A stretch of 7,973 nucleotides of DNA from a virus (taxonomy: Duplodnaviria > Heunggongvirae > Uroviricota > Caudoviricetes). Positions within the stretch are counted from its first letter, which is position 1. Each line of letters opens with the position of its first letter. Below the pieces are notes generated by a model. The model was given only the letters and a program-made list of their open reading frames with translations, made no database searches and was not told the origin of the DNA. The position numbers were made by a program, and so were the translations under genes. The DNA lies in the IMG/VR virus record IMGVR_UViG_2703719355_000008, one strand, 5' to 3'. This document shows, piece by piece, positions 1-7,862 of the stretch.

Positions 1-72
1 ACAGATAAAGATACAGATAAAGATACAGATAAAGATACAGATAAAGATACAGATAAAGATACAGATAAAGAA
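1..72 (+). repeat. 12-bp tandem repeat (ACAGATAAAGAT) x6, last unit variant; runs off the window start
   Basis: Direct reading: five perfect copies at 1-60 and a sixth ending GAA at 61-72. In frame 1 this encodes (Thr-Asp-Lys-Asp)n continuous with the downstream ORF. Confidence 0.9.
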
Positions 73-672
73 GATCAAAACACTATGGTCCATGGCGTAA
101 AAAACGCCACGAACCAGGCAGGGGATGTTCAGACCGTCAATCCTGGTCAGCCAGCAGGCACGACACCGGAAGCCGATTCAGCGTATGCGCTGAAAGCCGA
201 TTCGGGCGCTGTGCAGCAGGTGATGACCGCAAGGCCGGAGCAATCACTCCAACTGCAGCAGCCTGAAGCCGATTCCGCCATTCAGTGGGAAGCCGATCGG
301 GTAGTCCCGGAAAACACCGGGCAGTCTGTGGGACGAGTGGATTATCCGGATGTGTTCGAACAGGTCTGGCGGGAGTACCCGTTGCGTGCCGGGGCAAACC
401 CGAAGAAATCCGCTTTCAGTGCCTGGAAGGCCAGATTACGCGAGGGGGTGCCACCAGAGGCCATGCTGGATGGCGTGAGGCGTTACGCAAGATATCTGGC
501 GGTTACCGGGAAAACTGGAACGGAATTTGTTCAGCGAGCGACGACGTTTTTTGGACCGGACCGGAATTTTGAAAACCCCTGGTTGCTCCCGGTAAGCGGC
601 ACGAACAACCAGCGTTGTGTTAATCATATTTCTGAACCGGACACCGAAATTCCGCCGGGATTCAGAGGGTAA
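1..672 (+). CDS. Phage replication-associated protein, 5'-partial (C-terminal conserved phage domain; putative replisome organiser/initiator)
   Basis: Frame 1 is open from nt 1 to TAA at 670-672. The C-terminal part (DYPDVFEQVWREYPLRAG...FGPDRNFENPW) resembles, from memory, the conserved C-terminal domain of lambdoid replication-initiator-type proteins. Function is inferred; the true start lies upstream of the window. Confidence 0.6.
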   Translation, partial: TDKDTDKDTDKDTDKDTDKDTDKEDQNTMVHGVKNATNQAGDVQTVNPGQPAGTTPEADSAYALKADSGAVQQVMTARPEQSLQLQQPEADSAIQWEADRVVPENTGQSVGRVDYPDVFEQVWREYPLRAGANPKKSAFSAWKARLREGVPPEAMLDGVRRYARYLAVTGKTGTEFVQRATTFFGPDRNFENPWLLPVSGTNNQRCVNHISEPDTEIPPGFRG

Positions 673-709
673 CAGATTTCAGGTCATGGGGTAATTTTCA
701 GGAGGACTT

Positions 710-1129
710 GTGGCAAAAGTTTTTACACAAGAAGAGCGAGAAAAAATTAAAGGGCAGGTTATTGAACTTGTACGTCTGAGCGGTCGCGAGACGTTACGGG
801 CTCTGGAGGCTAAAACCGGTGCATCAAGGTATTACATAAGCACTCTCGCCAGAGAACTGGTCGCCAGTGGTGATGTTTACAATTCAGGCTACGGATTATT
901 CCCCTCTGAACAGGCTCGTAAGGACTGGCAAAACGCCCGCAAAAAATTATCGAGGGCAAAGCTGAAGAAACCGGTTGTGGTTGATCCTGACCTTATATGG
1001 TCATTACCAGACGGAGAAATACGTCGCTACGACAGGCGCCTGAATATAATCTGTCGCGAGTGCCGGAAGAGCGAAGTTATGCAGCGAGTGCTGGCGTTTT
1101 ATCAGGGAAATTATCAGGGGGGGCTGTGA
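710..1129 (+). CDS. Hypothetical phage protein (139 aa)
   Basis: GTG start at 710 with AGGAGGA SD at 699-705 (4-nt spacing); long ORF co-oriented with neighbours. No motif recognised with confidence. Confidence 0.7.
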   Translation: MAKVFTQEEREKIKGQVIELVRLSGRETLRALEAKTGASRYYISTLARELVASGDVYNSGYGLFPSEQARKDWQNARKKLSRAKLKKPVVVDPDLIWSLPDGEIRRYDRRLNIICRECRKSEVMQRVLAFYQGNYQGGL

Positions 1130-2782: not shown

Positions 2783-2887
2783 ATGTCGGATGATATTTCA
2801 CTGGTAATGGAAGGCGCTCTGGCTGTTATTGCTGTTGTGGGTGTTTACTGCCTGGTTGTGTTTTTGATGGATCGCCTGGGGAACTGA
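2783..2887 (+). CDS. Candidate 34-aa small membrane peptide (MSDDISLVMEGALAVIAVVGVYCLVVFLMDRLGN)
   Basis: ATG at 2783 preceded by strong SD AAGGGAGGG (2772-2780); single hydrophobic helix; stop TGA at 2885-2887. Not on the ORF track because it is under 60 aa. Confidence 0.45.
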   Translation: MSDDISLVMEGALAVIAVVGVYCLVVFLMDRLGN

Positions 2888-2897
2888 ATTCATTCCG

Positions 2898-2913
2898 TAT
2901 GGGAATTCCCATA
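2898..2913. promoter_or_regulatory. Perfect 16-bp palindrome TATGGGAATTCCCATA
   Basis: Read directly; equals its own reverse complement. Sits between the small-peptide ORF and the putative hok promoter. No U-tract after it, so a protein-binding site is more likely than a terminator. Confidence 0.35.
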
Positions 2914-2927
2914 TCGGGCAAAAACGG

Positions 2928-2956
2928 TTTGCTGTAAAGCGAGAGTTAAGTAGAAT
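2928..2956 (+). promoter_or_regulatory. Putative hok/mok promoter (-35 TTGCTG 2929-2934; -10 TAGAAT 2951-2956; 16-nt spacer)
   Basis: Hexamers read by eye. Predicted start near 2962 coincides with the 5' element (2961-2974) that is complementary to the mRNA 3' end (3337-3351). Confidence 0.4.
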
Positions 2957-3024
2957 TGCTGCGGGTGCTTGAGGCTGTCTGCCTCGGGCATGCCGCCGTA
3001 AGGCAGACAGAGAAAAGCCCCAGT

Positions 3025-3083
3025 TAACATTACGCGTCCGGCAAGACGCTTAACATTAATCTGAGGCCATATCTATGACTTGC
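3025..3083 (-). ncRNA. sok: Putative Sok-like antisense RNA (approximate bounds)
   Basis: Minus-strand promoter-like hexamers: -35 TTGCCT (complement of 3113-3118), 17-nt spacer, -10 TAACCT (complement of 3090-3095), giving a start a few nt inside mok and transcription into the hok leader. This matches the known hok/sok layout. The 3' end is not defined; a GCGTC/GACGC stem lies at 3043-3058. Confidence 0.35.
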
Positions 3084-3287
3084 ACATGTAGGTTAGCCTC
3101 TTACGTGCCGAAAGGCAAGGAGAAGCAGGCTATGAAGCAGCAAAAGGCGATGTTAATCGCCCTGATCGTCATCTGTTTAACCGTCATAGTGACGGCACTG
3201 GTAACGAGGAAAGACCTCTGCGAGGTACGAATCCGAACCGGCCAGACGGAGGTCGCTGTCTTCACAGCTTACGAACCTGAGGAGTAA
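3075..3287 (+). CDS. mok: Mok-like overlapping reading frame (70 aa), in frame with hok
   Basis: ATG at 3075 with SD-like TGAGG 8 nt upstream; N-terminal extension MTCTCRLASYVPKGKEKQA precedes the hok Met, as in chromosomal mok/hok pairs (from memory). Confidence 0.5.
   Translation: MTCTCRLASYVPKGKEKQAMKQQKAMLIALIVICLTVIVTALVTRKDLCEVRIRTGQTEVAVFTAYEPEE
3132..3287 (+). CDS. hok: Hok/Gef-family type I toxin (51 aa small membrane toxin)
   Basis: Translation MKQQKAMLIALIVICLTVIVTALVTRKDLCEVRIRTGQTEVAVFTAYEPEE carries the Hok/Gef signature (TM helix, TRKDLCEV, conserved C-terminus) and is near-identical, from memory, to E. coli HokD/RelF. AAGGAG SD at 3117-3122. Confidence 0.9.
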   Translation: MKQQKAMLIALIVICLTVIVTALVTRKDLCEVRIRTGQTEVAVFTAYEPEE

Positions 3288-3355
3288 GAGACCTGGCGGG
3301 GGAGAAATCCCTCGCCACCTCTGATGTGTCAGGCATCCTCAACGCACCCGCACTT

Positions 3356-3385
3356 AACCCGCTTCGGCGGGTTTTGTTCTTTTTG
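3356..3385 (+). terminator. Rho-independent terminator of the hok transcript (copy 1 of a 23-bp repeat)
   Basis: Stem CCCGC-TTCG-GCGGG (3358-3371) followed by a T-rich tract TTTTGTTCTTTTT. Confidence 0.75.
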
Positions 3386-3427
3386 TGAAAAAAATTCCCT
3401 TAAAGGAGATTTTTTTAACTAAAAAGG

Positions 3428-3455
3428 TTTACTTTGCTTTCGTATATGGTAAATT
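3428..3455 (+). promoter_or_regulatory. Putative promoter of the HTH/peptidase cassette (-35 TTTACT 3428-3433; extended -10 TGgTAAATT 3447-3455)
   Basis: Hexamers read by eye in an AT-rich intergenic region. An imperfect inverted repeat (3485-3501, CTTGC-gttag-GCAAG) lies between the predicted start site and the SD and could be an operator. Confidence 0.3.
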
Positions 3456-3531
3456 TTAGGAATTAGAATTTAAGCGCCCATCAGGCTTGCGTTAGGCAAG
3501 TCTGCTAAATCAACAAATTGAGGATAAAATC

Positions 3532-3891
3532 ATGGCACTCACTGAATTCGGTAAGGCCGTTAGAAAAGCGAGGATCGATACTGACAGTACTCTTCTGACT
3601 ATGTCTCAAGAACTGGGCACTACGCCAGCGTTTCTTAGCGGTTTAGAAACTGGTAGCAAAAAAATACCTCTGAAGTGGGTTAAGAAGATTGATTCTTACT
3701 TCAAGGCCAAAGGTGTAGAAATTGAAGGGTTACAGGAGTTAGCGGCAGTTGCGAATGACTCAGTTCCAGTAAACGGTTTGTCTCAGCAACAGAAAATGCT
3801 TGTAGCGGGATTCGCTAAGTCGCAGTTTACGCCGGAACAGCTAAAGAGTTTTGCAGATTTATTGCAAAAGATTAATAACAATGAGGGGTAA
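3532..3891 (+). CDS. XRE/Cro-type helix-turn-helix transcriptional regulator (119 aa) with C-terminal extension
   Basis: ATG at 3532 with SD GAGGAT at 3521-3526. N-terminus (LTEFGKAVRKARIDTDSTLLTMSQELGTTPAFLSGLETGSKKIP) fits the HTH_XRE pattern. Stop at 3889-3891 is 2 nt before the next gene. Confidence 0.85.
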   Translation: MALTEFGKAVRKARIDTDSTLLTMSQELGTTPAFLSGLETGSKKIPLKWVKKIDSYFKAKGVEIEGLQELAAVANDSVPVNGLSQQQKMLVAGFAKSQFTPEQLKSFADLLQKINNNEG

Positions 3892-3893
3892 TT

Positions 3894-4370
3894 ATGTATC
3901 AAATGAGAGGTAACAGGGTGTCACCGATGCAAGAAGAAGAAATAGCCTACAGAGCTATAAACTTCTGTAATGCTATTGGTCTTACAGCCTCAAAGCGCAA
4001 AAGAAAGCGTTATGATATGTTCTTTGAAAGCCTGTCAATTTATGGGGTTACTCTTGACGTCAGGACCGACAAAGAGTGGGAGGCTCTGACGTATGATCTA
4101 ACTATCGGACATTGTGACCCCGCTTCTCTAACAATTACGGTTCCCAATAAAATATATGTGAATGCTTGCCTTGGGGAAGAGCATGCACTTGCTGTTATCT
4201 TCCACGAGCTAGGTCATTTGCTTCTTGGACACAAAGCAGTTTTACACTTTTCAGTTAAAGAACCTACTCGTATTGAGGATGCAGAATGGCAGGCAGATAC
4301 ATTTGCGGATATCGTACTGGAAACAATTGGCGTGAGAACACAACAGATGTCGTTCGATTTTTATATGTAA
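3894..4370 (+). CDS. ImmA/IrrE-family (COG2856-like) zinc metallopeptidase (158 aa)
   Basis: SD GAGGGG at 3884-3889. HExxH zinc-binding motif FHELGHLLLGH at residues 103-113 (nt 4203-4217), with size and partner arrangement typical of ImmA-like peptidases paired with XRE regulators. Confidence 0.8.
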   Translation: MYQMRGNRVSPMQEEEIAYRAINFCNAIGLTASKRKRKRYDMFFESLSIYGVTLDVRTDKEWEALTYDLTIGHCDPASLTITVPNKIYVNACLGEEHALAVIFHELGHLLLGHKAVLHFSVKEPTRIEDAEWQADTFADIVLETIGVRTQQMSFDFYM

Positions 4371-7614: not shown

Positions 7615-7862
7615 CTATCAGAGAAGTGCTTATTGATCTATGGCTAATACTGTAAAAATATCCAGTTGTGAGTTAATCAACGCTGATTGCCTGGAATTTA
7701 TCCAGACCTTACCGGAAAACTCTGTCGATCTGATAGAAAACTATCAGAGAAGTGCTTATTGATCTATGATTAATACTGTAAAAATATCCAGTTGTGAGTT
7801 AATCAACGCTGATTGCCTGGAATTTATCCAGACCTTACCGGAAAACTCTGTCGATCTGATAG
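7615..7862 (+). repeat. Tandem duplication (~126-bp period; copies 7615-7736 and 7741-7862) of the methyltransferase upstream region plus first 32 codons
   Basis: The two copies differ at only 2 positions (ATGGCT vs ATGATT at the start codon context). Each copy begins CTATCAG and ends CTGATAG, so the junction forms the palindrome CTGATAG-aaaa-CTATCAG. Confidence 0.9.
7640..7762 (+). pseudogene. Truncated duplicate of the methyltransferase 5' end (40-codon ORF, MANTVKISSCELINADCLEFIQTLPENSVDLIENYQRSAY)
   Basis: First repeat copy has its own ATG; it diverges from the intact gene at codon 33 and terminates at TGA 7760-7762, inside copy 2 upstream of the real start. Confidence 0.35.

Follow-up and report, generated by a model that had tools for sequence, protein, structure and literature searches.

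The window, a stretch of 7,973 nucleotides (nt) from a virus of the Caudoviricetes (IMG/VR record IMGVR_UViG_2703719355_000008), is part of an Escherichia coli Rac-like lambdoid prophage. It opens inside a gene for a phage replication initiator ('replisome organizer'), at a tandem array of 12-bp units that encode Thr-Asp-Lys-Asp (TDKD), and it is this array and its possible part in a replication origin that we describe here. The features of the gene within the window are listed below; domain boundaries are from an AlphaFold2 (AF2) model of a homologous protein, P0001.

1..672, plus strand, frame 1: 3' 672 nt of the initiator gene (223 codons and the stop); the first 435 nt lie outside the window
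1..71, plus strand: tandem 12-bp array, from Tandem Repeats Finder (TRF) and translation; proposed AT-rich unwinding tract of the origin and a variable-number repeat
72..108, plus strand: conserved junction 3' of the array, with GATC at 73-76, an NTMVHG coding motif at 79-96 and an inverted repeat at 94-108
72..336, plus strand: rest of the low-confidence interdomain linker (AF2 of P0001)
337..597, plus strand: folded helical C-terminal domain (AF2 helices), the presumed contact with helicase or helicase loader
598..669, plus strand: C-terminal 24-residue DnaT-like tail (NCBIfam DnaT and PDB chain matches)

TRF reports the array at window 1-71 with a period of 12, 5.9 copies, 100% matches, no indels and a score of 142; the observation is sound, and chance would not account for it. 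The unit is ACAGATAAAGAT, the sixth copy closing with GAA instead of GAT, and frame 1, open from window base 1 to the stop codon at 670-672, reads the array as five TDKD units and one TDKE, (TDKD)5-TDKE. On the coding strand the array is 75% A+T and 75% purine, and the bases that follow it, 72-84 (AGATCAAAACACT), are unique, non-repeat sequence. The original prediction had placed these repeats in frame within a replication-type gene, as proved right, and had counted six or more units in an array truncated by the window edge. The perfect 12-bp repeat stands, but the number is exactly six in identical relatives: the six-unit arrays of three contigs (L003, L004 and L020) begin at the equivalent of window base 1, directly after ...GAGTCACG, and L004 has no mismatches to the window across the 5,057 bases compared 3' of the array, nor has L020 across 600. 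Since the arrays of these relatives begin at the very base that is window position 1, the window most likely contains the array in full, and what the edge probably cuts is the gene, by 435 nt, together with the iterons described below. A gene start at the ATG at 85, the circumstance that was to have counted against a coding array, was considered and rejected: the frame continues open to the window edge, identical relatives carry 435 nt more upstream, where the full-length gene starts, and this ATG is internal.

In L003 and L004 the full-length gene (contig 2857-3963) encodes 368 aa; the homologous open reading frame (ORF) in the closest complete genomes encodes 356 aa and bears the Prokaryotic Genome Annotation Pipeline (PGAP) name 'phage replisome organizer'. 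A full-length match links the protein to PHROG 3729 ('replication initiation protein'; E 1.1e-256, residues 1-356 on profile 1-356), and weak ones link its residues 4-163 to PHROGs 4880 and 5968 ('replisome organizer'; E 4e-6 and 1e-4). Other PHROG families that it matches are those of DnaD-like helicase loaders and of replication proteins, in their C-terminal parts. A Pfam search of the full-length protein gave no family at E ≤ 0.01, hence no match to Phage_rep_O or Phage_rep_org_N; the same search of 23 homologues gave no initiator family, its sole family being the DnaT domain in 6 of the 23, and NCBIfam returned nothing for the full protein beyond a match of its tail to DnaT. The gene order in L001-L011 is repressor, cro, ydaT, initiator, with a DUF977 gene next in the closest complete genomes; in relatives, the initiator is followed by a DnaC-like gene, a lambda-P-like gene, a helicase gene or dnaB. 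With a 312-nt probe spanning the array, the region was detected in 1,644 of 5,426 complete E. coli genomes, including O145, O111 and O157 prophages, and the initiator family extends to phages of Pseudomonas, Aeromonas and Ralstonia.

Upstream of the array, in the part of the gene that lies outside the window, the relatives carry two clusters of the hexamer GTCACG. Cluster II consists of five copies, at gene nt 389, 399, 409, 420 and 430 (spacing 10, 10, 11 and 10 bp), the last of which abuts the array; cluster I, about 250 bp upstream, has four copies starting at gene nt 129, 139, 149 and 160, and one inverted copy stands at gene nt 193. The 8.4-kb locus contains 11 copies against 3.1 expected, a number that none of 200 shuffles reached, and 9 of the 11 fall in one 300-bp stretch of the gene. 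The two-cluster layout recurs in distant homologues, in which the core switches in both clusters together:

GTCACG: Salmonella (L018), a metagenomic homologue that is 52% identical (L013), Serratia (L014), Aeromonas phage pAEv1818, Pseudomonas phage phi1
GTAACG: L015 and L016
GCAACG: Ralstonia phage Firinga, gene nt 130-182 and 401-431, the same gene positions
AAGGGGCTTCGAAG: L017, with an unrelated N-terminal module; 11-bp spacing, 2 + 3 copies 245 bp apart

Co-varying cores are the pattern expected if the hexamers were binding sites of each gene's own product, and they bear directly on the suggestion, made in the original prediction by analogy with lambda, that the 12-mers themselves are iterons, i.e. 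the sites at which the initiator binds. Tandem direct repeats do lie within the initiator gene, as in lambda, and a period of 12 is close to one helical turn. We nevertheless regard the suggestion as extremely unlikely. Near-identical N-terminal domains are found with units of other sequence and period (GATAAA x4, ACAGAT x5) or with one or two units, the ACAGATAAAGAT unit is absent from the second cluster, and one to six copies among near-identical phages would be unexpected for initiator sites. The GTCACG-type hexamers, at 10-11 bp spacing, are found in each of the two clusters, their sequence changes along with the N-terminal domain, and they are the better candidates.

L017, whose initiator is named 'DNA-binding protein', has the same C-terminal module as the window gene. 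Its own AAGGGGCTTCGAAG iterons lie at 1685-1976 and are followed at 1979-2014 by an (EQ)n-coding GAACAG repeat, the length of which varies across protein clusters P0033, P0040, P0048 and P0114. The low-complexity tract appears to mark a junction at which N-terminal and C-terminal modules are exchanged.

The tract that follows the iterons differs in sequence from one relative to another, and its composition is retained. In every checked homologue of the N-terminal family, cluster II is followed by an A-rich, purine-rich low-complexity tract, which in the homologues examined at the junction starts 0-4 nt past the last iteron; examples include (GATAAA)3-4, (ACAGAT)5, AGATAAGAAAAGAAG x2 and GAGAAGAGAAGAG.... 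An AT-rich region had been expected adjacent to the repeats; in the window it is the array itself, which has 25% GC compared with 53% for the whole gene, no other part of which is less stable. Across homologues, no part of the gene has a lower GC content than the tract (0.17-0.33 vs 0.53-0.58 for the gene), and in L013, L014, pAEv1818, phi1 (with a locus GC of 0.59) and Firinga no other 36-mer in all of the locus sequence retrieved is as poor in GC. Nearest-neighbour energies single out the tract as the 40-mer of lowest stability within the gene in 8 of 9 loci (z 3.3-4.2, with 3.3 for the window-type array); for the six-unit allele, no other 70-mer anywhere in the 8.4-kb L003 locus, promoter regions included, is as unstable.

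The codons of the tract follow the same trend. Across six lineages, A or T is the third base in 84 of the 86 codons of the tract, while elsewhere in the same genes this holds for 826 of 1,879; the ratio of A/T to G/C endings is 28:0 for Asp (elsewhere 67:50), 21:0 for Lys (46:31), 13:0 for Thr (36:88) and 5:0 for Leu (31:71), and the codons used include the rare CTA, AGA, ATA and ACA. The encoded peptide differs among relatives, which have TDKD, DKDK, TDTD, PDKDTDTETD, IRKEE, IRKEEIRKEDKE or REEKSREEDKEKD at this place, and L015 has the conserved motif ACAGATAAG in its DNA but translates it in a different frame (CGA CAG ATA AGA). Both single strands of the array have a predicted fold of 0 kcal/mol, i.e. 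are unstructured. The minimum of GC and stability, the A/T codon endings, the unconserved peptide and frame and the unstructured strands indicate selection on the composition of the tract DNA, besides any selection on the protein. A structure-forming role for the array, as a hairpin or cruciform, was also considered and is ruled out by the value of 0 kcal/mol for both strands.

The protein encoded by the tract was examined in an AF2 model of the three-unit protein P0001, built with 23 homologues, in which the methionine at window nt 85 is residue 162. The model contains a confident N-terminal domain (residues 1-90), a basic helix (110-126), a segment of very low confidence (128-245; block values of the predicted local distance difference test, pLDDT, of 25-32) and a helical C-terminal domain (246-305; helices 250-258, 268-280 and 285-302, pLDDT about 65-77). 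The repeats had been assigned to an interdomain linker, and the model agrees, with pLDDT below 35 throughout residues 128-245; on its evidence the linker, of about 118 residues, is probably disordered. The TDKD units and the iteron-encoded stretch CHGxSRNVTHMSRRVT open this low-confidence segment. Cluster I encodes a loop of the N-terminal domain at which model confidence dips, and in L015 the loop is longer and contains more repeats. The array had further been placed immediately upstream of a conserved C-terminal domain, which is correct insofar as the NTMVHG motif follows at 79-96, but the folded domain begins about 88 residues past the array, near window nt 337. In most homologues the tract is followed by this motif in the form NT[ML]VHG, among them one whose N-terminal module is unrelated.

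The last 24 residues of the initiator, ending in ...NHISEPDTEIPPGFRG, resemble the C-terminus of the host primosomal protein DnaT (...SEPDxEIPPGFRG). The NCBIfam DnaT model is matched over its positions 156-179 (E 0.0015, 18.2 bits vs a cutoff of 201) by these residues only, and DnaT chains in the PDB (6aep, 2ru8 and 9zbt) match the tail; the PDB sequence search otherwise returned one uninformative designed repeat protein. A Foldseek search of the AF2 model against the PDB gave nothing significant (best E 0.6), its weak matches being mostly to winged-helix-type regulators. The resemblance suggests that the phage initiator mimics the DnaT tail to reach the host helicase-loading machinery, and the tail accounts for the 'primosomal protein I' annotations in several phage records.

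The number of units in the array varies among close relatives. Ten contigs were obtained through lookup of the neighbouring DUF977 protein, and viral and metagenome contigs were scanned for arrays of at least four units, giving nine loci. The counts are:

6 units: L003, L004, L020
5 units: L011
4 units: L005, L009, L026
3 units: L006, L007, L010
3 units, the last unit being ACAGATCAAGAA: L001, L002

Contigs with three, four, five and six units have 0-2 mismatches over the 5 kb 3' of the array. The variation points to replication slippage as the source of the length polymorphism, because L004 and L005 differ in their arrays (six and four units) while both match the window without mismatch over the next 5,057 bases. 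Copy number in complete E. coli genomes was read from about 107 of the 1,644 genomes, comprising an evenly spaced sample and the top matches. Among the 47 full-length places of the former, about 44 have a span of 276 bp (three units); 288 bp (four units) was seen twice and 312 bp (six units) once, and one place is irregular; the 312-bp span occurs in at least eight genomes among the top matches listed. Three units are the usual allele, and the window carries a six-unit expanded allele, longer by 36 bp and 12 residues. Neither the viral and metagenome contigs scanned nor the E. coli genomes read contained an array of more than six units. Expansions have occurred in three allele backgrounds: that with the ...AAAGAA terminal unit (the window type), that with ...CAAGAA (O145:H28 strains with 5 + 1 units) and the O157-type gene (L025), in which the expanded array is combined with a different C-terminal module. 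Other variants, with one to three units or with TD and TDKD mixed, occur among the protein clusters. A slippage-prone, length-variable linker had been offered as the alternative to an origin element, and the array is indeed variable rather than invariant in number, with three, four, five and six units in near-identical prophages and two in some protein variants.

The array thus has the properties of a coding variable-number tandem repeat (VNTR): the units are near-perfect, the unit length is a multiple of three and counts differ between near-identical sequences. It differs from the familiar examples in that it coincides with a probable cis-acting replication element, not with a surface or contingency gene. 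We found no link between the array and loci used for typing by multilocus VNTR analysis (MLVA; O157, and Salmonella STTR6). Since near-identical prophages differ in the array, it could serve as a ready-made typing marker.

Our interpretation, which we hold to be rather probable, is that the array is at once a slippage-prone disordered linker and the unwinding tract of a lambda-style origin located within the initiator gene. The tract is likely a DNA-unwinding element because it is A+T-rich, purine-skewed and free of structure and lies directly 3' of phased iterons. The testable structural features of initiator-embedded origins are found here: the position in the operon, three or more phased repeats, an adjoining AT-rich tract and co-varying cores. 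In the scheme that we propose, the N-terminal domain would bind clusters I (gene nt 129-165) and II (389-435), the resulting wrapped or looped complex would strain the adjoining tract, the weakest duplex of the region, so that it melts, and the C-terminal domain with its DnaT-like tail would load DnaB, either directly or via a DnaC-like or P-like loader. In the protein, the TDKD units would lengthen the linker that joins the presumed origin-binding N-terminal domain to the presumed helicase-recruiting C-terminal domain; six units in place of three would thereby extend both the meltable tract (by 36 bp) and the linker (by 12 residues). The repeat, its frame, its length polymorphism, the iteron clusters with their co-variation and the composition, stability and codon bias of the tract are observed; initiator binding, melting of the tract, origin activity and any effect of copy number are inferred from comparison.

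Several points weigh against an origin within the gene. We found no experiment or publication showing origin activity for this initiator family, and a survey of the literature on replisome organizers and iterons, on Eru-type Shiga toxin (Stx) phages, on Rac oriJ and on DnaT-like initiators yielded no description of the family's origin. The iterons assigned to the window are those of contigs that are identical to it downstream. Linkers rich in D, K, E and T are A-rich and purine-rich through coding alone; the units of an array are copied from one another, which makes the codon counts non-independent; and in L017 the (GAACAG)n tract is purine-rich and neither AT-rich nor the stability minimum of its gene. 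Finally, the prophage lacks the DnaC-like loader gene that follows a 98%-identical initiator in O145:H28; it may be replication-defective, and the expansion would then possibly be neutral.

An alternative view is that the array is only a neutral slippage product in a disordered linker, its DNA having no role in replication and its adjacency to the iterons being a by-product of the domain boundary. The region is predicted to be disordered by AF2, natural length changes of 24-72 nt are tolerated, and the purine-rich character of charged D/K/E linkers, the L017-type tract and the possibly defective state of the prophage are all compatible with it. We nonetheless judge this view unlikely, if worth serious attention. 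It does not readily explain why A or T should end 84 of 86 codons in six lineages, rare CTA, AGA, ATA and ACA included, or why L015 keeps the DNA motif while frame and peptide change; nor does it explain a tract that is the GC or stability minimum of gene or locus even in the 59%-GC DNA of a Pseudomonas phage, and that begins within 4 nt of the last iteron in the examined homologues of the N-terminal family.

At window 673-710 the initiator gene is succeeded directly by a DUF977 gene, with no loader gene between them, and the closest relatives are arranged likewise. The prophage of O145:H28 strain RM12761 (L031 3277-4838) carries a 98%-identical initiator followed by a DnaC-like ATP-binding gene, a DUF1627 gene and DUF977. 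The window prophage may have lost its helicase loader, or may use the host DnaC instead.

One extension of the origin interpretation, which we consider improbable as matters stand, is an expandable unwinding element in which about two to six units act as a heritable, fast-mutating dial on origin melting and linker length. Were it true, the strength of prophage replication and induction would differ between otherwise identical lysogens, and together with the two co-varying iteron clusters it would define an uncharacterised class of origin, carried by about 30% of complete E. coli genomes and also by phages of Pseudomonas, Aeromonas and Ralstonia. Quite improbable, in our estimate, is a related proposal, in which the array is a tuning or contingency locus whose copy number sets origin firing or linker reach, or else a repeated site for a host factor. 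The recurrent expansion in three allele backgrounds would fit a tuning locus, as would the position of the six-unit array as the least stable 70-mer of the 8.4-kb locus and the GATC sites that flank the tract. Yet three units predominate and none of the sampled genomes exceeds six, which resembles mutation and drift around a mode, and a host-factor site is disfavoured by the lack of a DnaA box near the array; the nearest perfect one in L003 is at 4012, inside the next gene. Resemblances to IHF, Fis and oriC 13-mer sites, judged by eye only, were unconvincing.

An origin embedded in the initiator gene would place the window gene, by analogy, among architectures of the lambda, P22 and SPP1 type, a class already known. 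In lambda, iterons and an AT-rich tract lie in the middle of O, and the repeat number differs between phages and alters protein length (PMC7466680). The analogy with lambda that was drawn at the outset fits in architecture: the origin would again lie midway along the initiator gene, itself downstream of cro in the early-right operon (Stx-phage variants of the lambda type have six iterons), an AT-rich tract comes immediately after the row of direct repeats, and the repeats are translated between an origin-specific N-terminal and an exchangeable C-terminal domain. The differences are equally clear. Lambda iterons are 19-bp palindromic units, whereas those of the window type are units of about 10 bp with a 6-bp core, grouped into two clusters separated by about 250 bp. 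The AT-rich tract here consists of perfect 12-bp tandem units, and near-identical prophages differ in how many they have. The window initiator has no detectable sequence homology to lambda O (no Pfam match), no P gene follows it, and its C-terminal tail is DnaT-like.

In the Bacillus phage SPP1, direct repeats bound by the organizer and an AT-rich unwinding element lie inside gene 38 (PMC6316719). G38P and oriL resemble the present system in that repeats and unwinding element are within the organizer's own gene, and the name 'replisome organizer' is shared; the window family differs in its Gram-negative hosts and in having no Pfam match to the organizer N-terminal domain, with PHROG matches that are weak only. 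A remote kinship to SPP1 G38P-like organizers (Phage_rep_org_N) is possible. The likeness to E. coli DnaT is confined to the last 24 residues and to the Pfam DnaT DNA-binding domain in 6 of 23 sister proteins, the remainder of the initiator being unrelated and its position being that of a phage initiator. Two details are less usual within the class: the iterons form a pair of clusters, some 250 bp from each other, whose cores co-vary, and the proposed unwinding tract is made of perfect tandem units that are polymorphic in number. They would extend the lambda paradigm, not overturn it. The predicted iterons, the second cluster and the unwinding tract could aid annotation of replication modules in those lambdoid and Stx-type prophages that carry neither lambda O nor P. 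The array also offers a sequence in which selection at the DNA level and at the protein level can be separated, as TDKD is recodable to GC-rich codons.

At the 3' border of the tract, one or two GATC (Dam) sites are present in most homologues, e.g. AGATCTAAAAGATCAAAAC, with the window site at 73-76 and others at matching positions in L001, L013, L015, L016, L018 and L029; they are loosely reminiscent of the GATC-initiated 13-mers of oriC. The inverted repeat at window 94-108, GGCGT-AAAAA-ACGCC, overlaps the conserved coding motif VHG(V/E)K.A. Its GGCG...CGCC arms are retained in distant homologues, and in L013 the fifth pair is altered on both sides (GGCGA...TCGCC). A palindrome stands beside the AT-rich region of the lambda origin, of which this inverted repeat may be the counterpart, or it may be a coincidence of coding.

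Elsewhere in the window, TRF detects a 126-bp tandem duplication at 7615-7862 (2.0 copies, 98% identical) that covers the leader and first codons of a phage DNA methyltransferase gene (N6_N4_Mtase). Copy 1 gives rise to a 40-aa ORF (7640-7762) ending in the duplicated leader, and the ATG of copy 2, at 7766, starts the real gene. In 23 of 25 sampled complete E. coli genomes the methyltransferase region aligns in full with a record span about 126 bp shorter than the query, and the duplication looks rare or private to its source. A hok/gef-family type I toxin ORF (hokD in the annotation of relatives) lies at 3075-3287 and is followed at 3532-4370 by a helix-turn-helix gene and an ImmA/IrrE-like metallopeptidase gene; these genes, in a ninR-like region, are ordinary prophage cargo.

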